From an uncultured Dehalococcoidia bacterium (GTDB lineage: Bacteria; Chloroflexota; Dehalococcoidia; Bin125), in assembly GCA_958295515.1 (NCBI GenBank), contig CATQGW010000001.1, positions 777,522 through 841,521 of the forward strand: a stretch of DNA of 64,000 bases, read 5' to 3'. A program made the position numbers and the translations under genes. The notes under the pieces were generated by a model. That model made no database searches and was not told the DNA's origin. It saw only the letters and a program-made list of their open reading frames with translations. The first letter of the stretch is position 1; every line of letters starts with the position of its first letter. Shown piece after piece: positions 32,644 to 64,000 of this stretch.

Positions 32644-32694
32644 GTCATCCCGTCCTTCCCGCCGCCGCGCGGGAAGTGGACCGCGCACACGCCC

Positions 32695-32784
32695 GGAGAG
32701 GTGCTGGAGTGGCCGATCAGGCACGCCTGGAAAGCGTGTAGGGGCGCAAGTCCCTCGTGGGTTCGAATCCCACCCTCTCCGCCA
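32695..32784 (+). tRNA. tRNA-Ser (anticodon GGA)
   Basis: Same acceptor stem; anticodon loop cTGGAaa; long variable arm; encoded CCA. Confidence 0.85.
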
Positions 32785-46257: not shown

Positions 46258-46347
46258 TTGCTCTCCCTCGTAGTCGTCGTTCGCAGGGAGTGTAGGGATT
46301 TACACGGCGGGGCACTGCGCGCACAGCCGCGCCCTACGATCCGCGCC

Positions 46348-47283: not shown

Positions 47284-48119
47284 TCGCCGCCGCCGCCGAC
47301 TACAGCCGCTGGCTGCGCGTTCTTCGCCTCGGCTACGCCTATATGCGGCTCCAGCTCAAAGTGATCGTGCGCGAGCCGGCCGCGCTCTTCTTCGTCGCCA
47401 TCTTTCCGGTGTTGTTTCTCGTCATCTTCTCCTCGTTGCTGACCTTCTCGATTGAGCTGCCGCCGGCGGCGGCGGGCGCGGGCGAGATCCGGTTCAGCCA
47501 GTACTTCGTCGCGGGGATCATGGGCGTCGCGATCTTCGGCACCTCGTTCAACCTGCTGGGCAACTCGCTGGCGGTGCAGCAGTTCGACGGCACGCTGAAG
47601 CAGCTCGCCGCCACGCCGCTGCCCAAGACGTCGTTCTTTCTGGGGCAGATCGGCGCGTCGCTGGTGATCACGCTCGGTCAGCTGATCGTGATGCTGATCC
47701 TCGGCGTGCTCGCCTACGACGTGCAGCTGCCCGACGCGGGCGGCTGGTTGACGCTGATCTGGATCCTGCTGCTCGGGGTGCCGGCGGGCTGCGTGATGGG
47801 CATCGCGATCACCGCGATCATCCCCTCGGCGCGCGCCGCGCCGGCGGTCATTCAGGCGCCCTTCATCCTCTTTCAGTTCATCTCCGGCGTCTTCTTCACG
47901 CTCGCCTCGCTGCCGACCTGGCTGCAATGGGTGGCGGGGCTCTTTCCGCTTCGCTGGGTCGCGCAGGGCCTGCGTTCGGTCTTCCTGCCCGACGCCTACA
48001 AGTACGCCGAAGCGGATATGACCTGGCAACTCGACCTGGCGGCGATCGTGCTCGTCGTGTGGATCGTGCTCGGCCTGGCCGTCGCAGCGTTCACATTCAA
48101 GTGGGACCGCTCAGGCTGA
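47280..48119 (+). CDS. ABC-2 family transporter permease
   Basis: 6-TM permease; start overlaps ATPase stop. Confidence 0.75.
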   Translation: MIAAAADYSRWLRVLRLGYAYMRLQLKVIVREPAALFFVAIFPVLFLVIFSSLLTFSIELPPAAAGAGEIRFSQYFVAGIMGVAIFGTSFNLLGNSLAVQQFDGTLKQLAATPLPKTSFFLGQIGASLVITLGQLIVMLILGVLAYDVQLPDAGGWLTLIWILLLGVPAGCVMGIAITAIIPSARAAPAVIQAPFILFQFISGVFFTLASLPTWLQWVAGLFPLRWVAQGLRSVFLPDAYKYAEADMTWQLDLAAIVLVVWIVLGLAVAAFTFKWDRSG

Positions 48120-48175
48120 GCGCCGTTGGCGATGTTGCCCGCGGCAAGCGCGGGTATGACGAGCGGGACGCCCGA

Positions 48176-48643
48176 TCAGCCCCGCCGGCGCAGATTGCGG
48201 CTGCTGCGCTGCTCGCGGGCGCGGCGTAGGCGCTGCGCTTCCAGCATCGCTTCCTTCATCTGCTCCGAACGCGGGGCTTCCACATCCGACGCTTCTACGC
48301 GCTTCGGGCCGCGTTGCAGCTGCTCCTGGCCGGGCAGGTGCCGCTGTTGCTGGGACAGGTCCGCCCCGACGGTGCGACGCGCGCGCTCCGTCGCATCCAG
48401 TGTGTCTTTGGGCATGTGCTGCGACGCATCGATCGCCCCGCTGGCCATGTAGGCGCGGTTGCTGGCGCTTTTCTCAATCTCGTAGATCGTCTGCGCCTCC
48501 GCGCCCATCGCATGCACCTCGCGCAGCACCGCGTCCTCCCAGCGCTTGACCCGCGCCGCCGCGCCCTGGCCGAACAATCGCGCCAGCAGCTTGAGCGGAG
48601 GGAAGATGAGCAAGATCAGGATTTCAAAGATCACGACGGCCAT
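48176..48643 (-). CDS. hypothetical membrane-anchored protein (155 aa)
   Basis: N-terminal TM MAVVIFEILILLIFPPL then charged helical region. Confidence 0.35.
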   Translation of the reverse strand: MAVVIFEILILLIFPPLKLLARLFGQGAAARVKRWEDAVLREVHAMGAEAQTIYEIEKSASNRAYMASGAIDASQHMPKDTLDATERARRTVGADLSQQQRHLPGQEQLQRGPKRVEASDVEAPRSEQMKEAMLEAQRLRRAREQRSSRNLRRRG

Positions 48644-48684
48644 TGTGGTTCCTTTCGCGCGCGGTCGGTCGGGCTACAGACTAG

Positions 48685-51600: not shown

Positions 51601-52269
51601 CGCCGCCAGCGCGTCGCCGCGGCGGCGGCTCTGGCCGAACGCCTTGAGCGTCGCCAGCCCCTGGATCGAGTCGAGGAAATCCGCCGCGAAGGAGCCGTAG
51701 GCCTCGCGGCGGCGCAGGCTGGCGACCGCGTTCTGCTTCTGCAGCAGCGAGGGCAGCGCCAGCGTGAACAGCGCGAAGCCGAGGAAGATGCCCGCGACCG
51801 GCAGGTCCAGGAAGGCCATGAAGATGAAGATGCCGATCGGGGCGATCGCGGCGACGACCAGCTGAGGGAGGTATTGGCCGAAGAATGTTTCGAGCTGCTC
51901 GACGCCCTCGACCACGCCGACGGTGACATCGCCGGTGCGGCGGCGGTCGAAGTAGGCGGGTCCGAGCGCCATGACGCGCTCGAAGAGGCGGCGGCGCAGG
52001 CTGAATTGCACCTGCACGGCGGTGCCGTTGGCCAGCTCCTCCTTGGCGTAGAGCAACGCGGAGCGGGCCAGAGTGGTCAGCGCGACGGCGATGATCAGCG
52101 GGGTGAGCGAGCTGAACGCGTCGCCCTCGAAGATGCGCGCGCCCATCCAGCCCAGCAGCGCCAGCCGCGACACGCCGGCCGCGACGGCGAGCAGACCGAG
52201 CACCACGGCCGCCGCGATCCGCGCCCGCACCCCGTCGGTGAACTGCCACAGTTCCCAGGAAAAGGTCAT
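48685..52269 (-). CDS. fused ABC transporter permease/ATP-binding protein (TMD-NBD-TMD-NBD; CydDC-like thiol exporter architecture)
   Basis: Two Walker A (GRSGSGKST, GPSGAGKTT) and two signature/Walker B sets (LSGGERQRIAIARALL..ILILDEA; LSGGQRQRVAIGRALL..VLVLDEA); start at MTFSWELWQF overlapping upstream gene stop as ATGA. Confidence 0.8.
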   Translation of the reverse strand: MTFSWELWQFTDGVRARIAAAVVLGLLAVAAGVSRLALLGWMGARIFEGDAFSSLTPLIIAVALTTLARSALLYAKEELANGTAVQVQFSLRRRLFERVMALGPAYFDRRRTGDVTVGVVEGVEQLETFFGQYLPQLVVAAIAPIGIFIFMAFLDLPVAGIFLGFALFTLALPSLLQKQNAVASLRRREAYGSFAADFLDSIQGLATLKAFGQSRRRGDALAARAQEVFRTTMGVLLHNAMAQGLTILAITVGAAVALSVGALRVESGAMEIAELLVVLMLGVEVFRPLRELSQLFHQGLLGVAAAQSVLEVADAEPLVPDAAAGELDGELSAEIEFDSVTFAYPTGRRDALSGVSFSASPGRRVGVVGRSGSGKSTLLWLLQRMYVPQQGAIRLGGRDLNTLSFAQIRGRMAVVMQDTYLFHGTVLHNLRFGQPEATDAQIIAAAQAANAHEFISNLPDGYQTVIGERGHRLSGGERQRIAIARALLRDAPILILDEALSSVDAENEATIQEALDRLMAGRTTLIMAHRLSSVMGCDEILVLDEGRLVERGDHAALLAAGGAYAELMAAQTADDPTIGGGETLADFDTAAPAAATPAALNGAQQGDTEAIVRAEGMGWRETTLRLLAMAAPYWRKTSLSFVTGVAHFFGAIAVGVIGALMVGAVRDGESITLLTALLILVAVLTGVCRFLENWISHDMAFRLLADLRVALFRKLDQLAPAYLLRRRSGDLVSMATQDVETVEYFFAHTIANVVVTVVVPAAALITLFAVDWRLGLGLAPLLLLAALSPLFTRQIVDQLGSRSRDHLGNLNAHMVDTLQGLREVTAFQREQARGVEFAERMREYAPVRRAFNRQITVQRIMLEGLTGFGGLAVLAIGGALAVQGEINPILAPLLTLLAMGAFLPVAELAQVGRRLGDTLGATRRLTSVHSEQPSVIDGPGAQAVESAQPSAAALAGVRFSYEDTPRTALNGVSFDLRAGGTVALVGPSGAGKTTAAHLLLRFWDPQEGIISLDDADLRTFRLDELRGQVALVAQDTYLFNTSIRDNLLIARPEANEDELRLAIARAGLAEFVESLPDGLDTQVGERGAQLSGGQRQRVAIGRALLKDAPVLVLDEATSHLDGYNERLVRGALDELMADRTTLVIAHRLSTVRDADQIVVLEDGRVAEVGRHEELAAQDGLYARLVRRQVAATRR

Positions 52270-53114
52270 GCTGCGCCCATCGAACGGAAGCGTAGGGCGA
52301 TCGCCATTGGGAGTTCGGGCAGCACGTTCCACATCAGCTTGGACTGCTCGTAGGGCTGCTGCGTCGCCGCCAGCTCCTCGATCCCGTCCAGCGCCAGCCC
52401 GCAGCTGAAGGCGTCCTGCAGCAGCTCGCCGAGCGGGCGGTGAAAGTAGATCTGCTTCTCTTTCTGCTGCACGTTGGTGACGCCGTGGGTGACGAAGCGC
52501 GAGAGGTAGCGCGAGATCGTCAGGCCGTGCGGCTGCTCGTCGTCCTTGCCTTTGGCGAAGCTGTTGGCGGCGGTGGCGTAGGCCGGGTGCAGGGTGACGA
52601 CGACGAACGCGCCGCGCGGCTTGAGCGCCCGCCGCACACCGCCGAACATCGGGCGCAGCAGCGGCATCGACATCACGCCCATCACGCAGACGGCGGCGTC
52701 GAAGGGCTCATCCGAAAGCTCCACAATCGCCCGCTCGTCCGTCGCGTCCAGCACGCGATAGGTCACATCCATTGCCTGATAGGCAATCGTCTCCGTGCGC
52801 TGCTGCGCGCGCTCGATCAGGCGCGGCGAGAGGTCCGTCGCCAGCACCTGCATGCCATCGCGCGCCAGCCGCCGCGCAAACGCACCGTTGCCGCAGGCCA
52901 GTTCCAGCACCCGCGCGCCGCGCGACAGCCCCAGCAACCGCTCCGCCGCCGGCCCGAACAGCTCCACGTGGAACTCATCCCCCTGATCGCCCCAGCGCTC
53001 GTCGAAGAAGTCCGCGCCCGCCTCCCAGCCGCGCAGGATTTCCTGCTTGAGCTGGGCAAGCTGCGCCTCGGGCTGCGCTTCGGGGTCCGGCGGAGTCTGT
53101 TGGGTTTCAGTCAC
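52266..53114 (-). CDS. class I SAM-dependent methyltransferase
   Basis: VLELACGNGAFARRLARDGMQV motif I; alternative ATG start at 53171. Confidence 0.7.
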   Translation of the reverse strand: MTETQQTPPDPEAQPEAQLAQLKQEILRGWEAGADFFDERWGDQGDEFHVELFGPAAERLLGLSRGARVLELACGNGAFARRLARDGMQVLATDLSPRLIERAQQRTETIAYQAMDVTYRVLDATDERAIVELSDEPFDAAVCVMGVMSMPLLRPMFGGVRRALKPRGAFVVVTLHPAYATAANSFAKGKDDEQPHGLTISRYLSRFVTHGVTNVQQKEKQIYFHRPLGELLQDAFSCGLALDGIEELAATQQPYEQSKLMWNVLPELPMAIALRFRSMGAA

Positions 53115-53189
53115 CCGCGAATGGTAGTGGTCGCGCTGCGCAGGGTGTGCGCTACAATCCGAACACGACATGGCGACAGGAGGCCACGG

Positions 53190-55196
53190 ATGAGCAACGA
53201 GCGAAACTATTGGCAGCGAATGCGGCGGTCGCGGATGAGCCGTCGGGCGCTGCTGCGCGCCTCGGGGCGCGCCGGCGTCGGCGCGGCCGGGCTGGCGCTG
53301 GTGGGCTGCGGCGACGATGACGACGACGACGCGCAGCCGTCCACGACGCGGACGGCGAGCCAGCAGCAACAGCAGCAGGACCAGCCGGCGCAGCAGACGG
53401 CGATGCAGCAACAGCAGCAGCAGACGGACGCTGATCAGCAGGCGCAGCAGGCCGACCAGCAGCAGCAGACGGTCGCTGAGCAGCAGCAGGAGCAGCAGCA
53501 GACCGTCGCGCAGCAGACGGGCCCGGCCCGCACCCACGGCGGCACGCTGCGCTTCTCGACGCCGGCGGCGACGCACGACTTCTTCGACCCGCACCGCGGC
53601 GTCTTCGGCCCCACCCAGTACTGGATGGGGTTCTACATGAACTACATGATCCGCTGGGCCAACAAAGAGGCCGGGATCATGGAGGCGGACATCACCTCGC
53701 TGCCCGAGACGCCCGACGGCCAGACGTACATCTTCAACGTCGATCAGGGCGCGCGGTTCTGGGACCAGTACCCGACCGAAGGCGGCCGCGACGTCACCGC
53801 CTCCGACATCGTGATCAACTTCGACCGCCAGATCGCCGCGCTGGACGCGGACGGCAACCCCGACGCGCGTTTCCGCGGGCAGGACGCCTTCCGCAAGACG
53901 AGTTCTTACGAGGCGACGGACGAGCAGACCTTCATCGCCAAGACCGGCGGCCCCGACGCGACGTACCTGGGCGGCACGATCCTGCGCCCCTTCTCCTGGC
54001 TGACCTCGCCCGAGGCGATTCAGGAGTTCGGCTCGCGCTGGCGCGACGAAACCGCGAACGTTGAACTCTCTTCGGGCACCGGGCCGTTCATCCCGCAGAC
54101 CTACGACCCGGACATCGGCATCTTCCTCGAGCGCAACAACGGCTACTGGAAGAACGGCCCCGACGGCGGGCAGCTGCCGTATCCGGACGCGGTGGAGTTC
54201 ATCAACCTGACCGACGCGACGGCGGTCGACGCGGCCTACCGCGCGAAGGGCATCGACATCGGCGGCTTCCCGCTCTCGTCGGTGCAGGTGGAAGAGCTGA
54301 CCGGCGACTTCCCCGACCACGAGACGGCGGAGGGCGCGTTCGGCTTCACGATCGTGACCGTGATGGGCACCTACGAGCCGGGCTGGGAAGGCTCGGATGG
54401 TCTGGGCAACCCGTACCTCGACCGCCGCTTCGCCTACGCGATGCAGGTGGCGGTGGACCGCGACCTGCTGATCGACGCCGTGTACCTGGGCGCGGCGAAG
54501 CCGTCGGCGACGCACTTCTGCCCCTGGTTCAGCACCTACTGGACGGTTCCGCCCGAGGAGCTGCGGACGGTGCCGGGCTTCCGGATCGACCGCGATGCGG
54601 ATATTGCGCTCTGCCGCGAGCTGATCGCCGCCTCCGGCTTCGACACCGACCGCACGGTCACGATCTACATCCCCGACCTCTGGGAGAACACCTACCCGGG
54701 CATCTCGGAGACGACGCGGAACATGTACCGCGAGGCGACGGGGATCAACGTTGAGCTGGACATCCAGCCGTACACGGTGATGCAGGACCGCTACGACAAC
54801 AAGACCTTCCCGGGCCGCGCGCCGACGTGGACGAACCCGCCGGCGGACCTGGATCCCACGGCGCAGTTCACGCTGTCGCTGAAGGTGGGCGGCGCGTCGA
54901 ACCTGACGCAGTACAACTACCCGGCGGTCGAGGAGATCGTGGACGAGATGACGGTGACGCTGGACGCTGAGCAGCGGCGCGACATGGCGCTGCAGGTGCA
55001 GCGGATCGGCCTCGGCGTGGACCCGGATCATGGGCTGGAAGGCATCTTCGGCTGGTTCGGCGTGATGAACGGCGTGGCGCCGCAGATTTGGTGGCCGTAC
55101 GTGAACCGCGACGACAACACGTGGCAGTTCGCGCACGACTCGCACAACCACGACGACACCTGGCTGGACACGACGCACCCGGAATTCCCGGCCTAG
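53190..55196 (+). CDS. ABC transporter substrate-binding lipoprotein, family 5 (peptide/oligosaccharide type), paralog 1
   Basis: Tat-like SRRALLRASGRAGVGAAGLALVGCG lipobox; DDDDDD and Q-rich linker; SBP_bac_5 body. Confidence 0.8.
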   Translation: MSNERNYWQRMRRSRMSRRALLRASGRAGVGAAGLALVGCGDDDDDDAQPSTTRTASQQQQQQDQPAQQTAMQQQQQQTDADQQAQQADQQQQTVAEQQQEQQQTVAQQTGPARTHGGTLRFSTPAATHDFFDPHRGVFGPTQYWMGFYMNYMIRWANKEAGIMEADITSLPETPDGQTYIFNVDQGARFWDQYPTEGGRDVTASDIVINFDRQIAALDADGNPDARFRGQDAFRKTSSYEATDEQTFIAKTGGPDATYLGGTILRPFSWLTSPEAIQEFGSRWRDETANVELSSGTGPFIPQTYDPDIGIFLERNNGYWKNGPDGGQLPYPDAVEFINLTDATAVDAAYRAKGIDIGGFPLSSVQVEELTGDFPDHETAEGAFGFTIVTVMGTYEPGWEGSDGLGNPYLDRRFAYAMQVAVDRDLLIDAVYLGAAKPSATHFCPWFSTYWTVPPEELRTVPGFRIDRDADIALCRELIAASGFDTDRTVTIYIPDLWENTYPGISETTRNMYREATGINVELDIQPYTVMQDRYDNKTFPGRAPTWTNPPADLDPTAQFTLSLKVGGASNLTQYNYPAVEEIVDEMTVTLDAEQRRDMALQVQRIGLGVDPDHGLEGIFGWFGVMNGVAPQIWWPYVNRDDNTWQFAHDSHNHDDTWLDTTHPEFPA

Positions 55197-55323
55197 AGAG
55201 AACCGCTCAGCCGCGGCGCGGCGCCCCTGCGCGGGCGCCGCGCCGCGCCGAGCGCGCTTCACGGCGGGTCGCCGCTGATCGGTTCTGGCAGGTTGCGCCG
55301 CCTCTGCGCGGCCGGAGCGCGAG

Positions 55324-56805
55324 ATGCAGAAGTATCTAATCAACCGCTTCCTGCTGGTGATCCCCACCCTGTGGTTGGTGATCTCGATCCTCTTCGTCGC
55401 GCTCAACCTGCTGCCCGGCGACTACGTCACGATCAAGCTCTCCAATCTGGAGGCTTCGGGTGCGACTACCCAGCCGGCCGAGATCGTCGGCGAGCTTGAA
55501 GTCGAGCGCACGCTGCACCGCGTGGTCGGCGGCAACACGCTCGAATCGGTCGCGCTCCAATACGGGATCACGGTGGAGGAGCTGCTGGCCAACAACCCCT
55601 CGCTCGATTCCAGCGCGGAGCTGCGGCCCGGTTCAACGCTGATCGTGATCGACGGGCAGCTGCTCTCGGCGATCTCGCGCCGCGAGCGGATGGCCTTGCC
55701 GGAGAACACCGCGGACGGCGTCGCGCTGCTGATCGAGCGCAACCCGCAGATTGAATTCGGCAGCGTCGCCGGCGAGCCCTACGCGCCGTCCGGCGAGACG
55801 CTCACGCTGCGCACCAGCACGACGATCAACGAGCTCGCCGCGGTCAACCGCGTCACCCCCGAGGACTACCTCAACGTCAACATCCGCGGCACGCCCTCCA
55901 ACGAAGACGGATTGCTCGCGGCCGACACGCTGCTGCTGCCCGGCGTCACGATCATCGCGCCCACGCGCGAGATCACCGAAGCCAGCATCAAGAACCAGCT
56001 CGGCATCGACAAGCCGTTGGGCATTCAGTACGTCGAGTTCCTCTGGGACACGATCCGCTTGCAGTTCCGCCCCTCTTTCCAGACCAACGAAGCCTCGATG
56101 GACATCTTCCTGCGCGCGCTGCCGCGCACGCTGCACCTCAACGGCTACGCGCTGATCGTGGCCGTGCTCGTCGCCCTGCCGGTCGGCATCCTCTCGGCGA
56201 TGCGCCAGGACCAGGCGGTTGACTACTTGCTGCGCGGCTTCGCGATCCTCGCGCTCGCGGCCCCGCCCTTCTGGATCGCGACGATGCTGATCTTCGTAGT
56301 GTCGCCGGGCGGGATTTTCGACGGTGGGGTCTGGTCGATCCCACTTACGGAGCAGGACGCGCGCAGCATCTTCAGCTCGGTCAGCGGTTTCTTCGCGCTC
56401 TACACGATCCCTGCGGTCGCGGGCGGGATCGCGGCTGGAGCGAGCCTGATGCGGATCACCCGCTCGGAGCTGCTCGAAGTGCTGCGCCAGGACTACGTGC
56501 GCACGGCCTGGTCCAAAGGGTTGCGTGAACGCGCCGTGATTCGACGCCACGCGCTGCGCAACGCGATGGTGCCGGTGCTGAGCGTCTTCGGCCTGCTGAT
56601 CGCGGCGCTGGTCGGCGGCAACATCATCCTCGAAGTGCTCTTCGCCATCCCCGGCATCGGCCTGCTGCTGCTGCAACGCATCTATCAGGCCGATGTCCCC
56701 GTGATCCAGACGATGTTCTTCTTCATCGCGCTGTTCGTGATCGTGCTGAACATCATCATCGATGTCAGTTACGCGCTGATCGACCCGCGAATCCGCTACA
56801 ACTAG
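55324..56805 (+). CDS. ABC transporter permease (DppB/OppB type) with LysM-like insertions in first periplasmic loop
   Basis: HRVVGGNTLESVALQYGITVEELLANNPSLDSSAELRPGSTLIV LysM-like motif; C-terminal half is a typical BPD_transp_1 permease. Confidence 0.75.
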   Translation: MQKYLINRFLLVIPTLWLVISILFVALNLLPGDYVTIKLSNLEASGATTQPAEIVGELEVERTLHRVVGGNTLESVALQYGITVEELLANNPSLDSSAELRPGSTLIVIDGQLLSAISRRERMALPENTADGVALLIERNPQIEFGSVAGEPYAPSGETLTLRTSTTINELAAVNRVTPEDYLNVNIRGTPSNEDGLLAADTLLLPGVTIIAPTREITEASIKNQLGIDKPLGIQYVEFLWDTIRLQFRPSFQTNEASMDIFLRALPRTLHLNGYALIVAVLVALPVGILSAMRQDQAVDYLLRGFAILALAAPPFWIATMLIFVVSPGGIFDGGVWSIPLTEQDARSIFSSVSGFFALYTIPAVAGGIAAGASLMRITRSELLEVLRQDYVRTAWSKGLRERAVIRRHALRNAMVPVLSVFGLLIAALVGGNIILEVLFAIPGIGLLLLQRIYQADVPVIQTMFFFIALFVIVLNIIIDVSYALIDPRIRYN

Positions 56806-56856
56806 GCGCGCTTGTGAGGGCAGCGTCCATGGATCGGGCAGAAGTGAACGCCATGA

Positions 56857-58107
56857 GTGAGCATCATGAGTGAACGATCGGGCGGCGTGGGCAGCGCTGA
56901 CAACGTTGAGCAGTATGCCTCCGCCGAGGGGCTGCGCGTCGCCGAAGCGAGCCGCTGGCGGCGCGCGGCGCGCGGCCTCGGCACGTTCATGCGCACCAAG
57001 CAGCTCGGCGCATTCGGGCTGATCGTGGTGGTCTTGTGGAGTGTGATCGCGGTGGGCACGGTGGGCGACGGCGGGGGCTGGCTCGGCCTGGGCCGCTACG
57101 ACTCCCGCGCGGTCTTCGAGATCGCCTCGGTCTCCTACGCGGACGACAAGCTGGCGAACGCGCTCGACGGGCTGGACGCAGATATCTCGACGGCTGCGCA
57201 GCGGGAGCTCGTCTCCGATCCGCAGATTTTCGGCCAGGTGGCCATCGACAACGCCGTCGCCGGCGAGATGGTCGACTACGGGCTGGAGCTGATCGCGGAC
57301 GGCATCCTGCTGGACACCCTGATCGATGCTGAGCAGATCGAGATCGAGGACGGCCAAATCAAGGATGTGGACGCGCTGCTCGCCACCGGTACGGATAACC
57401 CGCTGATTACGGCCTCGCTGCTGGACCCCTCGGGCAAGCACTGGTTCGGCACCGACCGCGCCGGCCACGACCTCTTCTCGCGCGTCACCGAAGGCGCGCG
57501 CCTCTCGCTCTACATCGGCTTCTTCGCCACCCTGATCGGGGTCGGAATCGGGACGGTCGTCGGCTTGCTGGCCGGCTCGTTGGGCGGCGCCGTCGACCTG
57601 ATGGTGAACCGGGTCATGGACGCCATCCAGGCCTTCCCGCCGATCGTCTTCCTGCTGCTGATCGCCTCGGTCACCGACCCCTCGGCGCTCTGGGTGACGC
57701 TCTCCCTGGCGGTGCTTGGAGTTGCGCCAACCAATCGGATTGTGCGCGGCAGCGTGATTCAGATCCGCGAAATGCCGTACGTGGAGGCGGCGCGGACGAT
57801 TGGGGCCACGGCGGGGCGGATCATGGGCTTCCACATTCTGCCCAACATCTTCGCGCCGCTGATCGTGATCTTCTCGATCACGATCGGCGCGTTCATCCTC
57901 GCCGAAGCCGCGCTCAGCTTCCTCGGCCTGGGCACGCTCGATGTGTCGTGGGGCAAGATGATCGCCGACGGGCGGCAGTTCATCGTGTACTCGCCCTGGA
58001 CTTCGCTCTGGGCCGGTCTCGCCCTCACGTCGCTCGTCTTCGGCTTCAATGTGCTCGGCGACGCGCTGCGCGATGTGCTTGACCCGCGTCTGCGCGGCTC
58101 GCGCTGA
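56857..58107 (+). CDS. ABC transporter permease (DppC/OppC type) with extended periplasmic loop
   Basis: C-terminal BPD_transp_1 with ..EAARTIGAT.. motif; 416 aa. Confidence 0.75.
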   Translation: MSIMSERSGGVGSADNVEQYASAEGLRVAEASRWRRAARGLGTFMRTKQLGAFGLIVVVLWSVIAVGTVGDGGGWLGLGRYDSRAVFEIASVSYADDKLANALDGLDADISTAAQRELVSDPQIFGQVAIDNAVAGEMVDYGLELIADGILLDTLIDAEQIEIEDGQIKDVDALLATGTDNPLITASLLDPSGKHWFGTDRAGHDLFSRVTEGARLSLYIGFFATLIGVGIGTVVGLLAGSLGGAVDLMVNRVMDAIQAFPPIVFLLLIASVTDPSALWVTLSLAVLGVAPTNRIVRGSVIQIREMPYVEAARTIGATAGRIMGFHILPNIFAPLIVIFSITIGAFILAEAALSFLGLGTLDVSWGKMIADGRQFIVYSPWTSLWAGLALTSLVFGFNVLGDALRDVLDPRLRGSR

Positions 58108-58179
58108 TCCCCAGCGCGCCCCGCACCCCAAATTTGCCACCAGCGCCCCATCGGGGCGACTCGGACGCAGGAGGACACG

Positions 58180-60174
58180 ATGAGCAGCGAGCGAAACTAC
58201 TGGCAGCGGATGCGGCGGTCGCGGATGAGTCGGCGCGCGCTGCTGCGCGCCTCGGGGCGCGCCGGCGTGGGCGCGGCAGGTCTGGCGCTGGTCGGCTGCG
58301 GCGACGATGACGACGATGACCAGCAGACGGTCGCGCAACGCGCGCCGCAGCAGCAGGATCAGCCGGCGCAGCAGCCGGCGATGCAGCAGCAACAGACGAC
58401 GCAACAGCAGCAGCAGGCGGCGGACACGCAGGCGCAGGCGGCGGATCAGCAGGACGCGCCGGCCGACGACGAGCAGTCCGACCCGCAGCAGACGGTATCG
58501 CAGAGCAACATCGTGCGCGGCGGCGACCTGCGCTTCTCGACGCCGGCGGCCACGCACGATTATTTCGACCCGCACCGCGGCGTCTTCGGCCCTACCCAGT
58601 TCTGGATGGGCTTCTACATGAACTACCTGATCCGCTGGCGCAACAAGGAGCAGGGCATCCTGGAGGCGGATGTCGCCTCGCTGCCGGAGATTCCCGACGA
58701 GGAGACCTACATCTTCGCCGTGGATCAGGGCGCCCGCTTCTGGGACCGCTACCCGACGGAGGGCGGGCGCGAGGTGACGGCGGAGGACGTGCAGATCAAT
58801 TTCCAGCGGCAGATCGACGCGGTCGACGCGACCGGCACGGAGGACGGCACATTCCTGGGCGCCTCCTCCTTCCAGAAGACGGCGTCGACGGACGTGCCGG
58901 ACAATCAGACCTTCATCGCCCGCACGGCGGGACCGGACGCGACCTGGATGGGCGTGCCGCTGCGCCCGTTCAGCTGGATCACGTCGCCCGAGGCGATTCA
59001 GGAGTTCGGCGACCGCTGGCGCGACGAGCCGACCAACGTCGAGCTCTCCAGCGGCACCGGGCCCTTCATCCCGATCAGCTACGACGCGGATATCGGCGTC
59101 GACATGATTCGCAACGAGAACTACTGGAAGCTGGGCGTCGATGGGCGGCCGCTGCCCTACTACGACAGCGTCACCCACTCCAACCTGACCGACCCGACGG
59201 CGGTGGAGGCGGCCTACCGCGGCAAGGAAATCTTCGTCGGCGGCTTCCCGCTCTCGACTGTGCAGGCGGATGCGATCCTGGCCGATTTCCCGGACCACCG
59301 CTCGGGGCAGATCGCGTTCGGCTTCACGATCATCACGGGCGGCGCGAACTTCAACCCCGACTGGGCCGGCGAGGACGGTCTGGGCAACCCCTGGATTGAC
59401 CGCCGCTTCGCGCAGGCGATGCATGTCGCGGTGGACCGCTACCTGATGATCGACGCGGTCTACCTCGGCTCGGGCAAGCCCAGCGGGATGGGCGAGACGC
59501 CGTGGTACAACGCCTTCTGGGCGGTTCCCGAAGAGGAGCTGCTGGCCACGCCGGGCTTCCGGCCGGACCGCGCGGCGGACATCGAAGAGGCGCGCGCGCT
59601 GCTGGACGCGAGCGGCTACGACCGCAGCCGCTCGCTCACGCTGATCGCGCCGGACATCTGGGAGGGCACCTACCCGGGCATCCTCGAGACCGAAGTGGGG
59701 ATGTACCGCGAGGCGCTGGACATCGACGTGACCTTCGATGTGCAGCCCTACACGGTGATCCTGCAGCGCTGGATCGAGGGCACCTATCCGGGCCAGGGTC
59801 CGCAGTGGACCAACCCGCCTTCGGACCTCGATCCGACGACCTCCTACAACAACAACTACGTGCCCGGCGGCAGCACGAACAACCTCTACTACGACTTCCA
59901 GCCGATGACGGACATCGCGCAGGAGATGCAGACGACGCTGGATCTGGAGCAGCGCCAGTCGATGGCGCACGAGGCGCAGCGGATTCTGCTGGGCACGCAC
60001 CCCGACTACGGGCTGGAGGGGATCGCCAACAGCCCGGCGGTGATGAACGGCATCTCGCCGGCGCTCTGGTGGCCGTTCGTGGAGCGCCCCGACGACAGCC
60101 TGCAGTTCGCCCACGCCTCGCACCGCTACGACGAGGGCTGGATCGATGTGAACCACCCCGACTACCCGGCCTAG
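58180..60174 (+). CDS. ABC transporter substrate-binding lipoprotein, family 5, paralog 2
   Basis: MSSERNYWQRMRRSRMSRRALLRASGRAGVGAAGLALVGCGDDDDDD...Q-rich linker. Confidence 0.8.
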   Translation: MSSERNYWQRMRRSRMSRRALLRASGRAGVGAAGLALVGCGDDDDDDQQTVAQRAPQQQDQPAQQPAMQQQQTTQQQQQAADTQAQAADQQDAPADDEQSDPQQTVSQSNIVRGGDLRFSTPAATHDYFDPHRGVFGPTQFWMGFYMNYLIRWRNKEQGILEADVASLPEIPDEETYIFAVDQGARFWDRYPTEGGREVTAEDVQINFQRQIDAVDATGTEDGTFLGASSFQKTASTDVPDNQTFIARTAGPDATWMGVPLRPFSWITSPEAIQEFGDRWRDEPTNVELSSGTGPFIPISYDADIGVDMIRNENYWKLGVDGRPLPYYDSVTHSNLTDPTAVEAAYRGKEIFVGGFPLSTVQADAILADFPDHRSGQIAFGFTIITGGANFNPDWAGEDGLGNPWIDRRFAQAMHVAVDRYLMIDAVYLGSGKPSGMGETPWYNAFWAVPEEELLATPGFRPDRAADIEEARALLDASGYDRSRSLTLIAPDIWEGTYPGILETEVGMYREALDIDVTFDVQPYTVILQRWIEGTYPGQGPQWTNPPSDLDPTTSYNNNYVPGGSTNNLYYDFQPMTDIAQEMQTTLDLEQRQSMAHEAQRILLGTHPDYGLEGIANSPAVMNGISPALWWPFVERPDDSLQFAHASHRYDEGWIDVNHPDYPA

Positions 60175-60244
60175 GCCGCACGGCGGCGCGCCGAATTCGC
60201 TACCATCGCGCCTCAATCCGAACGACTCGGATGAGGAGGACACG

Positions 60245-62245
60245 ATGAGCAGCGAGCGGAACTACTGGCAGCGGATGCGGCGGTCGCGGATGAGTCGGCG
60301 CGCGCTGCTGCGCGCCTCGGGGCGCGCCGGCGTGGGCGCGGCCGGTCTGGCGCTGGTCGGCTGCGGCGACGATGACGACGACGATGACCAGCAGCAGGCG
60401 GTCGCGCAGACGGCGCGGCAGCAACAGCAGCAGGCCGACGCCGTCCAGCAGGCGCAGCAACAGCAGCAGGCGCAGAGCCGCGCCGATCAGCAGGCGCAGC
60501 AGGCCGATCAGCAGGAGCAGAGCGCCGACGCGCAGGCCGACCAGCAGCAACAACAGCAGGAGCTGGTCGCCGAGAGCAACATCGTGCGCGGCGGCGACCT
60601 GCGCTTCTCGACGCCGGCCGCCTCGCACGACTACTTCGACCCGCACCGCGGCGTCTTCGGGCCCACCCAATACTGGATGGGCTTCTACATGAACAACATG
60701 ATCCGCTGGCGCAACAAAGAGCAGGCGGTCATGGAGTCGGACATCTGCGCGCTGCCGGAAATCCCCGACGAACTAACCTACGTCTTCACGCTCGATCAGG
60801 GCGCGCGCTTCTGGGACCAATACCCCACCGAAGGCGGCCGCCTGGTGACCGCCGAGGATATCCGCGCCAACTTCCAGCGCCACATCGACGGCCAGGACGC
60901 GACGGGCGCGGAGGACGGCTCGTTCCTGCACCAGGACTCCTACGCCAAGACCTCATCAATGGAGACGCCCGACGACATCACGTTCATCGCCAGGACGGAG
61001 GGTCCGGACGCGACCTGGATGGGCGTGCCGCTGGGACCGTTCGCCTGGGTCACCTCGCCGGAGGCGATCTCGGAGTTCGGCGACCGCTGGCGCGACGAAT
61101 CGACCAATGTCGAACTCTCCTCCGGCACCGGCATGATGATCCCGCTCTCCTACGACCCCGATCTGGGGATCGACATGAAGCGCAACGAGAACTACTGGAA
61201 GATGGGCGCGGACGGGCTGCCGCTGCCCTACTTCGATCAGGTCACCTTCGCCAATCTGACCGACCCGACCGCCGTTGAAGCCGCTTACCGCGGGCGCGAA
61301 ATCATCATCGGGGGCTTCCCGCTCTCCTCGGTGCAGGTTGATGCGATCACATCCGACTTCCCCGATCACCCGCGCGGCAACCTCGCCTTCGGCTTCACGA
61401 TCATCACCGGGCTCTTCAACCTCAGCCCCGACTGGAACGGCTGGGACGGGCTGGGCAACCCCTACCTCGACCGCCGCTTCTGCCAGGCGCTGCATGTGGC
61501 GGTGGACCGCTACCTGATGATCGACACCGTGTACCTCGGCTCGGGCAAGCCGAGCGGCCAGGAAGACACGCCCTGGTTTAACACCTACTGGGCGATCCCC
61601 GAGGACGAGCTGCTGCAAACGCCGGGCTTTCGGCCCGACCGCGAGGCCGACATCATGGAGGCGCGCGCGCTGCTCGACGCCTCGGGCTACGACATCAACC
61701 GCCACTTGCAGCTGATCGGCCCGGACATCTGGGAGCAGACCTACCCCGGCATCTTCGAGACCGAGATCAACATGTACCGCGAGGCGCTGGGGCTGGACAT
61801 CTCGTTCGATGTGCAGCCCTACACGGTGATCCTCCAGCGCTGGATTGAGGGCACCTACCCGGGCAGCGGTCCGCAGTGGACCAACCCGCCGGTGGAGTTG
61901 GATCCGACCACGGCCTACAACAACCGCTTCATCCCGGGCGGCAGCTGGAACAACCTCAACTACGAGTACCAGCCGATGGAGGACCTCGCGCGCCGGATGC
62001 GGGTCACGCTGGATCAGGAAGAGCGCCGCGAGATGGCGCACACCGCCCAGCGGATCGCCTTCGGCACGCACCCCGATCACGGCCTCGACGGCATCTCCCC
62101 CACCCCGGCGGTGATGAACGGCATCTCGCCCGCCGTCTGGTGGCCCTTCGTCCACCGCGGTGAGGACACGCTCCAGTTCGCCCACGCCTCGCACCGCATG
62201 GACGACACCTGGATCGATGTGAACCACCCCGACTACCCGGCCTAG
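60245..62245 (+). CDS. ABC transporter substrate-binding lipoprotein, family 5, paralog 3
   Basis: Same leader/lipobox; conserved 5' UTR with GAGGAGG SD. Confidence 0.8.
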   Translation: MSSERNYWQRMRRSRMSRRALLRASGRAGVGAAGLALVGCGDDDDDDDQQQAVAQTARQQQQQADAVQQAQQQQQAQSRADQQAQQADQQEQSADAQADQQQQQQELVAESNIVRGGDLRFSTPAASHDYFDPHRGVFGPTQYWMGFYMNNMIRWRNKEQAVMESDICALPEIPDELTYVFTLDQGARFWDQYPTEGGRLVTAEDIRANFQRHIDGQDATGAEDGSFLHQDSYAKTSSMETPDDITFIARTEGPDATWMGVPLGPFAWVTSPEAISEFGDRWRDESTNVELSSGTGMMIPLSYDPDLGIDMKRNENYWKMGADGLPLPYFDQVTFANLTDPTAVEAAYRGREIIIGGFPLSSVQVDAITSDFPDHPRGNLAFGFTIITGLFNLSPDWNGWDGLGNPYLDRRFCQALHVAVDRYLMIDTVYLGSGKPSGQEDTPWFNTYWAIPEDELLQTPGFRPDREADIMEARALLDASGYDINRHLQLIGPDIWEQTYPGIFETEINMYREALGLDISFDVQPYTVILQRWIEGTYPGSGPQWTNPPVELDPTTAYNNRFIPGGSWNNLNYEYQPMEDLARRMRVTLDQEERREMAHTAQRIAFGTHPDHGLDGISPTPAVMNGISPAVWWPFVHRGEDTLQFAHASHRMDDTWIDVNHPDYPA

Positions 62246-62315
62246 GCCGCACGGCGTCGCGCCGAATTCGCTACCATCGCGCCCTAATCCGAGCAACTCG
62301 GATGAGGAGGGCACG

Positions 62316-64000
62316 ATGAGCAGCGAGCGGAACTACTGGCAGCGGATGCGGCGATCGCGGATGAGTCGGCGCGCGCTGCTGCGCGCCTCGGGCCGCGCCG
62401 GTGTGGGCGCGGCCGGTCTGGCGCTGGTCGGCTGCGGCGACGATGACGACGACGATGACCAGCAGCAGGCGGCCGCGCAGACGGCGCGGGAGCAGCAACA
62501 GCAGCAGGCTCAGCCCGCCGCCGCGCAGCAGGCCGCGCAGCAGCAGCAGGCGGAGGCCGCCGCCGACCGCGCCGACCAGCAGGAGCAGCAGCAGAGCAGC
62601 GCCGATCAGGACGCACAGGCTCAGCAGACGGTCTCGCAATCCAACATCACGCGCGGCGGCACGCTGCGCTTCTCGACGCCGGCGGCGACGCACGACTACT
62701 TCGATCCGCACCGCGCGGTGTTCGGCCCCACCCAGTTCTGGATGGGGTTCTACATGAACTACCTGATCCGCTGGCGCAACAAGGAGCAGGGCATCCTCGA
62801 GAGCGATATCGCCTCGCTGCCCGAGATTCCCGACGCGGAGACCTACATCTTCTCGATCGACCGCGGCGCGCGCTTCTGGGACCAGTACCCGACCGAAGGC
62901 GGCCGAGAGGTGACGGCGCAGGACATCGAGGCCAATTTCCAGCGCCAGATCGACGCGGCCGACGCCTCGGGTGCGGAGGACAGCACCTTCCTCGGCGCCT
63001 CGGCCTTCCGCAAGACCGCTGCGATGGAGACGCCCGACGAGCTCACCTTCATCGCCAAGTCGGACGGGATCGACGCGACCTGGCTGAGTGTGCCGCTGCG
63101 CCCCTTCGCCTGGATCACCTCGCCCGAGGCGATCTCCGAGTTCGGCGACCGCTGGCGCGACGAGGCCGGCAATGTCGACCTGTCGTCGGGCACCGGGGCC
63201 TACATCCCGTTGACCTACGACCCCGACCTCGGCATCGACATGGCGCGCAATCCGAACTACTGGAAGATGGGCGCCGACGGCCAGCCGCTGCCCTACATGG
63301 ACTCCGTGGACATGAAGAATTTGACCGATCCGACGGCGGTCGAAACCGCCTACCGCAGCAAGGAGATCGATGTCGGCGGCTTCCCGCTCTCGACCGTGCA
63401 GGCGGCGGCGATCGGCAACGACTTCCCGGACCACCCGCAGGGCCAGATCGCCTTCGGCTTCACGATCATCACCGGCATCTTCAACTACAACCCCGACTGG
63501 CCCGGCGAAGACGGGCTCGGCAACCCATTCCTCGATCGGCGCTTCTGCTACGCGCTGCACCTCGCGGTGGACCGCTACCTGATGATCGACGCCGTCTATC
63601 TCGGCTCCGGCAAGCCCTCCGGCCAGGAGCACACGCCCTGGTACAACACCTACTGGGCGATCGACGAGGAAGAGCTGCTCGCTACGCCGGGCTACCGCCC
63701 GGACCGGGAGGCGGACATCGCCGACGCCCGCGCCTACCTCGACGCCTCGGGCTACGACAAAGAACGCGAGCTGCTGCTCTACGCGCCCGACATCTGGGAG
63801 GGCACCTACCCGGGCATCCTGGAGACCGAGAAGAACATGTTCGAGGAGGCGCTGGGCATCCCCGTCTCCTTCAACATCCAGCCCTACACGGTGCTGCTCC
63901 AGCGCTGGGTCTCGAAGACCTACCCCGGCGGCGGGCCGCAGTGGACCAACCCGCCCGACGACCTCGACCCGACGACCTCGTATCTGCAGAACCTGACGCC
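62316..64000 (+). CDS. ABC transporter substrate-binding lipoprotein, family 5, paralog 4 (3' end beyond window)
   Basis: MSSERNYWQRMRRSRMSRRALLRASGRAGVGAAGLALVGCGDDDDDDD...; open to window end. Confidence 0.75.
   Translation, partial: MSSERNYWQRMRRSRMSRRALLRASGRAGVGAAGLALVGCGDDDDDDDQQQAAAQTAREQQQQQAQPAAAQQAAQQQQAEAAADRADQQEQQQSSADQDAQAQQTVSQSNITRGGTLRFSTPAATHDYFDPHRAVFGPTQFWMGFYMNYLIRWRNKEQGILESDIASLPEIPDAETYIFSIDRGARFWDQYPTEGGREVTAQDIEANFQRQIDAADASGAEDSTFLGASAFRKTAAMETPDELTFIAKSDGIDATWLSVPLRPFAWITSPEAISEFGDRWRDEAGNVDLSSGTGAYIPLTYDPDLGIDMARNPNYWKMGADGQPLPYMDSVDMKNLTDPTAVETAYRSKEIDVGGFPLSTVQAAAIGNDFPDHPQGQIAFGFTIITGIFNYNPDWPGEDGLGNPFLDRRFCYALHLAVDRYLMIDAVYLGSGKPSGQEHTPWYNTYWAIDEEELLATPGYRPDREADIADARAYLDASGYDKERELLLYAPDIWEGTYPGILETEKNMFEEALGIPVSFNIQPYTVLLQRWVSKTYPGGGPQWTNPPDDLDPTTSYLQNLT

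Follow-up and report, generated by a model that had tools for sequence, protein, structure and literature searches.

Probable tandem Opp/Dpp-type uptake units with putatively tethered family-5 receptors and a LysM-bearing permease in an uncultured Dehalococcoidia bacterium

Gene content of the locus

The window (the whole stretch of 64,000 nucleotides that was analysed) ends in a nutrient-uptake locus that is conserved in a clade of uncultured Dehalococcoidia (Chloroflexota), and the region described here is the first two-thirds of that locus. The clade is probably sponge-associated, as the isolate names of several MAGs suggest. Open reading frames and their translations identify four genes for family-5 substrate-binding proteins (SBPs) and a single pair of permease genes, B1/C1, situated between SBP1 and SBP2 (Table 1). 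For C1, the ATG is the start called in relatives. SBP4 is truncated by the window end; its full-length ortholog has 664 aa in strain L001 and 663 aa in strain L086. The long minus-strand reading frames over the region (e.g. 55633-60243) are stop-poor shadow frames of DNA with a G+C content of 67-69%; the plus-strand frames have a GC3 of 0.87-0.93. A scan for terminators and promoters called no consensus element of either kind between genes across the window.

Table 1. Coordinates of the features, in window positions
Feature	Position	Strand	Description and evidence
Exporter ATPase	46183-47280		Walker-A and LSGGQ motifs
Exporter ATPase	48688-52332		Walker-A and LSGGQ motifs
SBP1 (alpha type)	53190..55196	+	668 aa, predicted family-5 lipoprotein; ORF, Pfam SBP_bac_5 E 5.3e-34
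SBP1 leader	53190-53309	+
SBP1 Asp run and Gln-rich linker	53310-53537	+
SBP1 body	from 53538	+
Stem-loop	55210..55249	+	G+C-rich, in the 127-nt spacer between SBP1 and B1; perfect core stem of 14 bp; RNA fold
Permease B1	55324..56805	+	493 aa, OppB/DppB-like; Pfam BPD_transp_1 9e-37
First LysM unit of B1	55516-55647	+	Residues 65-108; Pfam LysM
Second LysM unit of B1	55798-55962	+	About residues 159-213; fold support
Permease C1	56857 (GTG) or 56866 (ATG)..58107	+	416 aa or 413 aa, OppC/DppC-like
SBP2 (gamma-2 type)	58180..60174	+	664 aa; linker 58300-58518; ORF, Pfam
Hairpin	60216..60232	+	ATCCGA/TCGGAT, 6 bp, SBP3 5' UTR; RNA fold z -2.0
SBP3 (gamma-3 type)	60245..62245	+	666 aa; linker 60365-60589; ORF, Pfam
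Hairpin	62287..62303	+	7 bp, same as that of SBP3, SBP4 5' UTR; RNA fold z -2.45
SBP4 (gamma-4 type)	62316..64000 (cut at window end)	+	561 of about 664 codons; linker 62436-62654

Substrate-binding proteins

All four SBPs match Pfam SBP_bac_5 (E 5e-34 to 4e-28), and the SBP profile matches the PDB structure of DppA with an E-value of 9e-16. The AF2 model of the SBP2 body has the cluster-C SBP fold, with TM-scores (normalised on the target) of 0.6-0.75 against OppA, DppA and MppA, and Foldseek retrieves OppA/MppA/DppE-type structures at E-values of about 1e-19 to 1e-21. The closest structural neighbours of the body bind oligopeptides, murein tripeptide, nickel, opines, sialic acid or chitooligosaccharides, at no more than 18% identity. 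The SBPs reach only 18-36 bits against the NCBIfam equivalogs OppA, DppA, NikA, GsiB, SapA and Opp4A, the cutoffs of which are 393-1005, and by these scores they are members of no named NCBIfam equivalog. In an uncertain profile alignment at ~15% identity, DppA residue D408, the alpha-amino anchor of peptide binders, aligns to Pro546 of the motif QWTNPPxDLDPT; an invariant Asp551 lies five residues past it in the same alignment, beside an indel. The body of SBP1 is 60-63% identical to the others, and those of SBP2, SBP3 and SBP4 are mutually 74-76% identical.

The leader of 41 residues is identical in all four SBPs, save for an N/S difference at position 3. It contains a twin-arginine motif (S17-R-R-A-L-L-R) and a lipobox (L37-V-G-C40), which are kept in 113 of 118 homologs, and on these motifs the SBPs are assigned as putative Tat-exported lipoproteins. 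Neither Pfam (at E<=0.01) nor NCBIfam (at E<=0.001) listed a TAT-signal model among the matches of the SBPs. An xYWxR motif in the n-region is conserved across Chloroflexota SBP clades. The sequence-only reading had described the proteins as paralogous family-5 SBP lipoproteins sharing a Tat-type leader and Asp/Gln linkers, in agreement with the Pfam matches and motifs found here.

The leader is followed by a run of 6-7 Asp residues, slightly shorter than the 6-8 given earlier, and by a linker rich in Gln (35-43%), Asp (14-18%) and Ala (13-25%), in which ~90% of the Gln codons are CAG. From the residue after the lipobox Cys to a conserved GGxLR the linker has 76, 73, 75 and 73 aa in SBP1 to SBP4, respectively. 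The linkers thus differ in sequence between the copies, as had been stated, and are near equal in length, where a difference in length had also been stated. Across the 118 homologs the median length is 74 aa (sd 6), with 36% Gln, 18% Ala and 14% Asp. The pLDDT of the SBP2 model is below 50 over residues 1-109. Linker length is constrained, with indels of 1-2 aa between strains. To that extent the linkers do recombine and vary in length, as had been proposed; to call them hypervariable was an overstatement, because their strain-level divergence is 0.5-3.9% compared with 0.9-1.6% in the bodies and the indels are so small.

Tat/lipobox-anchored SBPs with low-complexity tethers are found in haloarchaea and monoderm bacteria, and these share the twin-arginine motif, the lipobox Cys and an acidic or low-complexity spacer ahead of the body with the proteins described here. 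The present spacer differs in being rich in Gln, Ala and Asp, in its fixed start of D5-7, and in its tightly kept length of ~74 aa.

Permeases and LysM domains

The transmembrane domain of B1 resembles the E. coli and M. tuberculosis DppB/OppB chains determined by cryoEM (Foldseek), and the best NCBIfam match of B1 is Opp2B/NikB-like. C1 matches Pfam BPD_transp_1 (2.2e-27) and is Opp2C/Opp4C-like. Both NCBIfam matches fall under the equivalog cutoffs. The sequence of the EAA region is intact in both permeases when aligned with relatives.

B1 has an enlarged extracytoplasmic TM1-TM2 loop of about 230 aa, which contains two LysM units. The first is recognized by Pfam (9.6e-10, 38.7-41.6 bits, gathering cutoff 20.9), and the second is supported by its fold rather than by an HMM. 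The AF2 model of the ectodomain (pLDDT about 80-89) consists of two beta-alpha-alpha-beta units. Foldseek matches the insert to the tandem LysM of structure 4uz2 with probability 1.0 and 29% identity, and to single LysM domains with an rmsd of 1.1-1.2 Å. One relative has a third LysM repeat and is matched by Pfam in two stretches (62.9 bits). In C1, TM1 is followed by an extracytoplasmic insert of some 130 aa that has no significant Pfam match. The LysM domains do not figure in the sequence-only reading.

The LysM-bearing permeases form an Opp-type family of more than 120 sequence clusters, all from Chloroflexota and with only generic annotations. No description of LysM domains in an ABC importer permease was found in the literature searched. 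The same tandem beta-alpha-alpha-beta fold occurs in the LysM (CBM50) domains of cell-wall hydrolases, such as the NlpC/P60 protein of T. thermophilus (4uz2); there it is attached to an enzyme (or to a receptor kinase), whereas here it is inserted into the TM1-TM2 loop of an importer permease. The LysM pair would most likely bind a GlcNAc-containing glycan, belonging either to the cell's own envelope or to the substrate class. Situated in the loop that would contact the receptor, it offers a testable hint to the substrate class of abundant uncultured Dehalococcoidia, which may be sponge symbionts.

A probable second permease pair beyond the window

The loci of two near-identical strains, L001 (98.2% nucleotide identity to the window, with 5 gaps) and L086 (98.2%), are collinear with the window. 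Their gene order is S-B-C-S-S-S-S-B-C, SBP4 being followed by a fifth SBP and by a second LysM-permease pair, B2/C2. L001, whose flank extends far enough, also has a degenerate third pair. Across some 15 related species of Dehalococcoidia, two permease pairs are combined with 2-6 SBPs at the locus. Of 14 further loci at species level, all that are well covered contain two B/C pairs, the minimal form being S-B-C-S-B-C. The ratio of SBPs to intact pairs is 5:2 in L001 and L086, 4:2 in L005, and 2:2 in L015 and L017; L002 has at least six SBPs with one permease pair in the stretch fetched. The earlier statement that SBPs outnumber permease sets in the locus is thus borne out.

Throughout the ~15 species, genes of the SBP1-type orthogroup are invariably the immediate upstream neighbours of pair 1, and those of every other SBP type come ahead of pair 2. 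Loci with the units in reversed order keep the same association, non-alpha SBPs being found ahead of the type-2 pair and the alpha SBP ahead of pair 1. The SBP genes come before the permease genes in every unit observed. This synteny, together with the pair read in the two 98%-identical strains, suggests that SBP2, SBP3 and SBP4 most likely serve a pair that would lie just past the window end.

The sequence-only reading had all four SBPs delivering to the single B1/C1 translocon and so broadening its substrate range. One pair is indeed all that the window contains, SBP2 starts 72 nt past C1 in the same orientation and without a terminator call in between, and the four genes share a conserved start of the body (88-96% nucleotide identity over its first 120 nt). 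Furthermore, the two pairs are 68-70% identical, so that promiscuous cross-docking of SBPs on either pair is plausible. Against this arrangement, both near-identical strains have a further pair after SBP5, the SBPs of types 2, 3, 4 and 5 move with the type-2 pair in genomes with unit 2 in front, where pair 1 keeps the SBP1 type, and the SBP genes consistently precede their own permeases. Delivery of all four SBPs to B1/C1 is therefore unlikely. The downstream set, the finding of which would have spoken against sharing, is present in L001 and L086, although it does not pair one-to-one with the SBPs.

ATPases

Opp/Dpp-type systems have two ATPases (D and F), normally encoded within the operon. 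A search of all six frames of the window for Walker-A and LSGGQ motifs found only two exporter ATPases, and no importer (Opp-type) ATPase in the window including the 53 kb upstream, in agreement with the earlier claim. Similarly, no Opp-type ATPase lies within ±10 kb at the relatives' loci L001-L019 and L086; in L005 the complete locus is flanked by unrelated genes, with no ATPase. Most related Dehalococcoidia Opp-type loci are without linked ATPases, whereas the proteobacterial controls show two. Because such loci mostly lack them, the missing ATPase is uninformative as to SBP sharing. It also calls for caution when the completeness of transporters is judged from MAG annotation.

MsiK of Streptomyces and MsmK of streptococci are unlinked ATPases shared by SBP-permease operons that have no ATPase gene. 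However, the importers that they energise are CUT1 sugar importers, which use a single type of ATPase, while the modules described here are Opp-type and no ATPase candidate was identified in the loci.

The lack of a linked ATPase, the unusually long spacers (73-76 aa) and the degenerate third permease pair, evidence that the locus can partly decay, would fit the idea that some of the SBPs are stalked surface proteins for binding or sensing, in host-matrix adhesion or signalling, rather than transport receptors. Nevertheless, the complete cluster-C fold is preserved in every copy, and every copy belongs to a permease operon; other Opp-type SBP clades, adjoining ordinary permeases, have leaders and linkers of the same design; and long tethers of low complexity are typical of lipoprotein SBPs in monoderm cells, which also counts against this idea. 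It is extremely unlikely.

Age of the paralogs and gene conversion

In a tree of the SBP bodies, SBP1, 2, 3, 4 and 5 each cluster with their orthologs from other genomes. The bodies of SBP2, SBP3 and SBP4 are 85-91% identical to those of their orthologs in other species (up to 91% for SBP2). SBP2, SBP3 and SBP4 are old, retained paralogs.

The 5' ends of the genes have a different history. The leader DNA of SBP2-4 is 96-99% identical, compared with only 74-76% (aa) in the bodies, while orthologs elsewhere with bodies 89-94% identical share only 77-89% of the leader nucleotides. A 100-nt tract is free of differences between SBP1 and SBP5, the bodies of which are 45% identical. SBP3 and SBP4 are 91-98% identical from -70 to +169, and a comparison of the three strains shows a strain-specific conversion, in the strain of the window, of the start of the SBP3 linker to the SBP4 version. 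Leaders and linker starts are thus kept alike within a genome by gene conversion. The result is a mosaic of concerted evolution, in which the leader, the ribosome-binding region and the linker start are homogenised while the ligand-binding bodies diverge independently.

Redundant amplification for dosage, giving more receptor and not more specificities, would account for the common architecture, the near-identical leaders and ribosome-binding sites, and the variation in SBP copy number from 2 to 6 between species. It is very improbable, given that the bodies are only 60-76% identical, that SBP2, SBP3 and SBP4 each have orthologs of their own elsewhere and have been individually retained, and that homogenisation is limited to the 5' ends.

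Proposed organization and comparison with known systems

The locus is best explained, with a probability of roughly 70%, as two tandem Opp/Dpp units of the PepT family, TC 3.A.1.5, with a variable set of lipid-anchored receptors. The first unit would consist of SBP1 and B1/C1, wholly in the window, and the second of SBP2, SBP3, SBP4, the fifth SBP and B2/C2, the pair lying beyond the window end. The SBPs would be exported by the twin-arginine signal and lipidated at Cys40, and the acidic run of D6-7 with a disordered Gln/Ala/Asp spacer of ~65 aa would hold them off the membrane. A ligand-loaded SBP would then dock on the enlarged extracytoplasmic domains of its own B/C pair, transport being powered by ATPases presumably encoded elsewhere in the genome. 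The old copies SBP2-4 probably partition the substrate range; their separate orthogroups point indirectly to differing receptor specificities. The SBP array would be a further example of a multi-receptor importer, an ordinary principle rather than a new one.

In P. aeruginosa the paralogous SBPs DppA1-A5, which differ in specificity, feed one DppBCDF (PMC4206461, PMC12728205). There, too, several paralogous family-5 SBPs are clustered upstream of the permease genes. However, those SBPs are soluble periplasmic Sec substrates and dppDF is in the operon, whereas the SBPs here appear to be Tat/lipobox-tethered with long Gln-rich spacers, and there are two pairs, LysM permeases and unlinked ATPases. 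The cluster-C fold is common to E. coli OppA and MppA, which share OppBCDF, and to B. subtilis DppE (3o9p, 4toz, 8ay0). Among these murein tripeptide binders a second SBP re-targets an Opp translocon to a peptide derived from peptidoglycan. This would fit a LysM permease, but the identity to the present SBPs is no more than 17%, and muropeptide binding is only a candidate function here. The permeases of the Opp-type importer that works with the Vibrio chitooligosaccharide-binding protein CBP are not known to carry a LysM domain. The Vibrio CBP importer (1zu0, 7ebi, 6lzq) uses the family-5 fold for GlcNAc oligomers, the ligand class bound by LysM domains, and is a structural neighbour (E about 5e-20 to 9e-20); at 14-18% identity it is no closer than the peptide binders.

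It is conceivable, although rather doubtful, that the LysM translocon is a dedicated machine for the uptake of GlcNAc-containing fragments, which might be muropeptides released from digested bacteria or host-derived chitooligosaccharides. The LysM domains would capture or orient the glycan part, a set of stalked SBPs would recognise different peptide or sugar moieties, and many Opp-type modules would draw on one pool of unlinked ATPases. The machine would work in a symbiont lineage that, as reported for SAR202, lacks peptidoglycan synthesis (PMC6306507). If true, an ABC importer would here pre-select its substrate through its membrane subunit, a design not previously described.

Untranslated regions and RNA elements

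The stem-loop between SBP1 and B1 is a candidate intra-operon attenuator or mRNA stabiliser. It has no T tract and was not called by the terminator scan. L005 and L004 have a long perfect stem in the corresponding place, with a different sequence.

All four SBP genes have GGAGG 6-8 nt ahead of the ATG. The 5' UTR consensus proposed earlier for all four is essentially exact for SBP3 and SBP4; SBP1 and SBP2 match it only in part. As judged from RNA folding and the alignment of the upstream regions, the SBP3 hairpin lies in a larger fold, in which CCUC is paired with the GAGG of the Shine-Dalgarno sequence.

The system is a variation on the well-known multi-SBP importer, and its interest lies mainly in a LysM-bearing permease and in mosaic concerted evolution, less in the array of substrate-binding proteins (SBPs). 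The sequence-only reading had assigned four tandem family-5 SBPs with hypervariable Gln linkers to a single permease pair. That finding is real, and its interpretation is partly right.

Substrate-binding lipoproteins

The four same-strand genes (SBP1 to SBP4) are confirmed, as is their near-identical leader. All four match the Pfam family SBP_bac_5 (E 5e-34 to 4e-28). Residues 1-41 are identical save for N or S at position 3, and contain a twin-arginine motif (S17-R-R-A-L-L-R) and a lipobox (L37-V-G-C40). Cys-Gly is followed by a run of 6-7 Asp (6-8 had been reported) and by a Gln/Ala/Asp-rich stretch. The linkers are indeed rich in Gln (35-43%, with CAG making up about 90% of the Gln codons), but their lengths, which had been described as differing, are nearly equal: 76, 73, 75 and 73 aa in SBP1 to SBP4, respectively, from Cys+1 to the conserved GGxLR. 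The body of SBP1 is 60-63% identical to those of SBP2-4, which are 74-76% identical among themselves. GGAGG is situated 6-8 nt 5' of the ATG in all four genes; the longer 5' UTR consensus proposed earlier is exact for SBP3 and SBP4 only. The plus-strand frames have a GC3 of 0.87-0.93, and the long minus-strand ORFs over the region are shadow frames of GC-rich DNA.

In the AF2 model of SBP2, residues 1-109 are disordered (pLDDT < 50) and the remainder forms a cluster-C SBP body. Its Foldseek neighbours are OppA, MppA, DppA/DppE, NikA, opine and sialic-acid binders and a Vibrio chitooligosaccharide binder, all with at most 18% identity and similar scores. A profile search with the SBPs matched E. 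coli DppA (E 9e-16), whose Asp408 is opposite the Pro of the invariant QWTNPP motif of the family in a profile alignment that is uncertain at that point. None of the SBPs reached the NCBIfam equivalog level. Naming a ligand was rejected, because comparison of sequence and fold with solved SBPs gives no split among peptide, muropeptide, opine, nickel and chitooligosaccharide binders.

Positions of the features in the window and, where a locus is named, in its relatives
Feature	Position	Strand	Remarks
SBP1	start 53190	+
SBP2	start 58180	+
SBP3	start 60245	+
SBP4	start 62316	+	ORF cut by window end
Permease B1, OppB-like	55324-56805	+	Pfam/NCBIfam
LysM-fold units in B1 TM1-TM2 loop	55516-55647; 55798-55962		Pfam for LysM, AF2 fold for two units
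Permease C1, OppC-like	56857/56866-58107		between SBP1 and SBP2, 3' of B1; Pfam/NCBIfam
Hairpin	55210-55249		directly 3' of SBP1 stop codon
Exporter ATPases	46183-47280; 48688-52332		six-frame motif scan
Identical tract, SBP1 and SBP5	53298-53397; L001 14271-14370		100 nt
Third B/C pair	L001 19438-21767; L010 12789-15247; L019 12782-15249		3' of unit 2
Promoter-like sites, examples	upstream of L001 14163; L019 7943; L015 7939 and 12856; others
Gln-linker SBP clades elsewhere	L023-L028, L032, L033, L037, L041, L045, L051, L052, L082
Alternating-gene block	4641-8762; 8870-10600; 11032-14442; 14473-16272; 17972-21658
373-aa ORF	29819-30940	-	Swt1-like HEPN domain (weak)
Two tRNA-Ser genes	32552-32784
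Serine beta-lactamase-family gene	45074-46324	-
ABC-2 exporter	46258-48119
155-aa ORF	48176-48643	-	no Pfam match
Fused two-half ABC exporter	48685-52332	-	between 155-aa ORF and methyltransferase
SAM methyltransferase	52266-53171	-

The LysM-bearing permease

The extracytoplasmic loop between TM1 and TM2 of B1, the first of the two permeases following SBP1, is enlarged to about 230 aa. Pfam finds LysM, which the sequence-only reading had not mentioned, in this loop with 38.7 bits against a cutoff of 20.9, and in the AF2 model the ectodomain consists of two beta-alpha-alpha-beta units with a pLDDT of about 80-89. Foldseek matches the loop to the tandem LysM of a T. thermophilus NlpC/P60 protein (4uz2) with a probability of 1.0, single LysM domains superpose on the units with an rmsd of 1.1-1.2 Å, and the membrane part resembles DppB/OppB of E. 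coli and M. tuberculosis. The B permeases of relatives have two or three LysM units, the third being found in a 541-aa form. The combination of LysM with BPD_transp_1 occurs in more than 120 sequence clusters; the few with a named source come from Chloroflexota MAGs, and their protein names are merely generic. A homolog search with the LysM loop as the sole query returned ten gene fragments, and full-text literature searches found no description of LysM-containing ABC permeases.

Two roles are proposed for the LysM domains: they would anchor the translocon to an envelope layer that contains GlcNAc, or they would bind a glycan-carrying substrate ahead of transport. For SAR202 symbionts, an absence of genes for peptidoglycan synthesis has been reported (PMC6306507). 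If it extends to the genome of the window, it would favour the substrate reading.

In the partner permease C1, about 130 extra aa are inserted on the extracytoplasmic side (approximately residues 75-185); this insert is kept in all relatives of the locus and has no Pfam or family match.

Two permease modules

Two near-identical strains, L001 and L086, are collinear with the window over 50244-64000 and 46867-64000, respectively, both with 98.2% nucleotide identity. The content 3' of SBP4 was read from these strains and not from the window's own contig. In both of them SBP4 is followed by a fifth SBP (SBP5, 675 aa), a LysM-bearing B permease (492 aa) and a C permease (414 aa). The latter two form a second, type-2 pair (B2C2), which together with SBP2-5 makes up unit 2; B1C1 is the type-1 pair of unit 1. 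The second C permease of L001 is followed by a small UPF0150 gene and then by a third B/C pair. Deletions have removed the EAA/coupling-helix region from both of its proteins, and its B copy has no first LysM; the pair is probably a duplicate in decay.

The SBP and permease homologs come from Chloroflexota MAGs. Dehalococcoidia is the label of nearly all GTDB species representatives in which the LysM permease is full-length, and L018 bears only the label Chloroflexota. We take the isolate names PNGco, IRC2 and SB0665 to suggest sponge metagenomes. In the stretches carrying the locus (L001-L019), the same methyltransferase lies upstream and usually a metallo-beta-lactamase-fold gene downstream, and two B/C pairs are present wherever the stretch spans the whole locus. 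The number of SBP copies varies from 2 to 6, with a minimal form S-B-C-S-B-C in L015 and L017.

A neighbour-joining tree of the SBP bodies has clear orthogroups: alpha (SBP1), beta (SBP5), delta, and three gamma groups that hold SBP2, SBP3 and SBP4, respectively. Each includes members from other species, with body identity of up to about 91%. A recent tandem duplication of the SBPs is ruled out by the orthologs that each of them has in other genomes. The alpha SBP is always directly upstream of the type-1 pair (B 77-89% identical to B1), and the non-alpha types all precede the type-2 pair (B 58-70% identical to B1). This pairing is kept where unit 2 precedes unit 1 (L002, L004, L008, L010, L012, L013, L016). 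Because the SBP types stay upstream of their own pair even when the order of the units is swapped, the most economical reading of the gene order is that SBP1 would work with B1C1 and SBP2-5 with B2C2. The proposal of several SBPs per translocon would thus still hold, applied to B2C2 beyond the window end instead of to B1C1. One permease set for each SBP downstream had been named as evidence against that proposal; more sets do follow in L001 and L086, but not one per SBP.

ATPases and transcription signals

As had been stated, the window contains one permease pair (55324-58107) and no importer ATPase: the only ATPases found by a six-frame motif scan of the whole window belong to exporters. There is no importer ATPase in the 53 kb upstream of SBP1, and the ATPase genes sought downstream are absent within ±10 kb of the locus in any relative. 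In L005 the complete locus lies between unrelated genes, without an ATPase. The same scan of 66 further Opp-type loci (L020-L085) found adjacent ATPase pairs in proteobacterial loci and in one Rokubacteria locus, and no ABC ATPase within ±10 kb at nearly all Dehalococcoidia and most Rokubacteria, Tectomicrobia and Spirochaetia MAG loci. The lack of linked ATPases is characteristic of the lineage and not specific to this locus, and is therefore no evidence for translocon sharing.

Rfam found only two tRNAs in the window, and the SBP 5' UTRs matched none of its RNA families. Within 52200-64000 the promoter scan called no promoters, and terminator-like sites were at or below shuffle expectation. 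The window has only weak -10-like hexamers, TACAAT before SBP1 and TACCAT before SBP3 and SBP4. In relatives, TTGACA-N17-TAnAnT-like promoters are situated about 40-50 nt 5' of the ATG of many SBP genes, and individual SBP genes there may have their own promoters.

The hairpin that follows SBP1 is G+C-rich, with a perfect core stem of 14 bp and no T tract. In L005 and L004 the SBP1-permease spacer also has a hairpin, just as strong but differing in sequence. The hairpin suggests a conserved attenuator or mRNA-stabilising element, which would raise the SBP:permease ratio.

Evolution of the leader and linker

The leader peptide and Asp run are kept in 118 of the 120 best homologs, 113 of which (of the 118) also have the twin-arginine motif. 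The linkers of the homologs have a median length of 74 aa (sd 6) and contain 36% Q, 18% A and 14% D. A freely varying sequence of narrow length fits a spacer of selected length.

The leader DNA of SBP2-4 is 96-99% identical within the genome, whereas orthologs in other genomes, with bodies 89-94% identical, share only 77-89% of the leader nucleotides; leaders are homogenised within genomes at the DNA level. SBP3 and SBP4 are 91-98% identical from -70 to +169, dropping to 56-75% in the linker. SBP1 and SBP5 share 100 nt without a difference, spanning the Cys codon, the Asp run and the first half of the linker. Outside this stretch there are 13 synonymous differences in the flanking leader, and the bodies are 45% identical; the stretch is a sharply bounded gene-conversion tract. 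Comparison of three strains revealed linker length polymorphism, as indels of 1-2 aa, and showed that the start of the SBP3 linker was converted to the SBP4 version in the window's strain. Divergence between strains is 0.5-3.9% in linkers and 0.9-1.6% in bodies. The homogenised leaders, conversion tracts, small indels and low divergence show that the leader and linker regions are recombination-prone, as had been claimed for the linkers, mainly via gene conversion between paralogs, and not dramatically hypervariable. Selection at the RNA level was rejected as the main cause of leader conservation across species, since the leaders of different genomes encode a conserved peptide with many synonymous differences.

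The leader design xYWxR...SRRxxL...LALVGCGDDDDD is also present on other Chloroflexota and Rokubacteria SBP clades, with Pro/Thr/Ala linkers, and is thus not special to this locus. Both the leader design and the Gln-rich linker chemistry are lineage conventions. Literature searches found nothing relevant on Gln-rich lipoprotein linkers.

The same leader, Asp run and long Gln-rich linker occur on other family-5 SBP clades of related Dehalococcoidia MAGs, beside permeases of normal size. Two of these genomes also carry the present locus.

Proposed mechanism

The analysis establishes which components are present and in what order, as well as paralog ages, gene-conversion tracts and LysM folds. 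By analogy with Opp/Dpp importers and lipoprotein SBPs, the SBP would be exported by the Tat pathway, lipidated at Cys40 and tethered by its spacer. The closed, liganded SBP would dock on the B/C ectodomains, and import would be driven by ATP through unlinked D/F subunits. E. coli OppA/MppA is a functional analogue. The closest one is P. aeruginosa DppA1-A5/DppBCDF (PMC4206461, PMC12728205). The present system differs in having Tat/lipobox tethering through a long spacer rich in Gln, two tandem membrane modules, LysM-bearing, enlarged permease ectodomains and no linked ATPases.

Other features of the window

The block upstream of the SBP locus (45074-53171) is kept in relatives. Its fused ABC exporter is found at the same position in the nearest relatives (L001, L005, L007, L086) and is absent there in L002 and L004. 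Between 4641 and 21658, very large proteins (1136-1373 aa, with Big_12 or FG-GAP matches only) alternate with paralogous Amidohydro_3 genes. The HEPN match of the 373-aa ORF (E 6.6e-06) is just under the Pfam cutoff. The two adjacent tRNA-Ser genes, with anticodons CGA and GGA, are about 50 nt apart.
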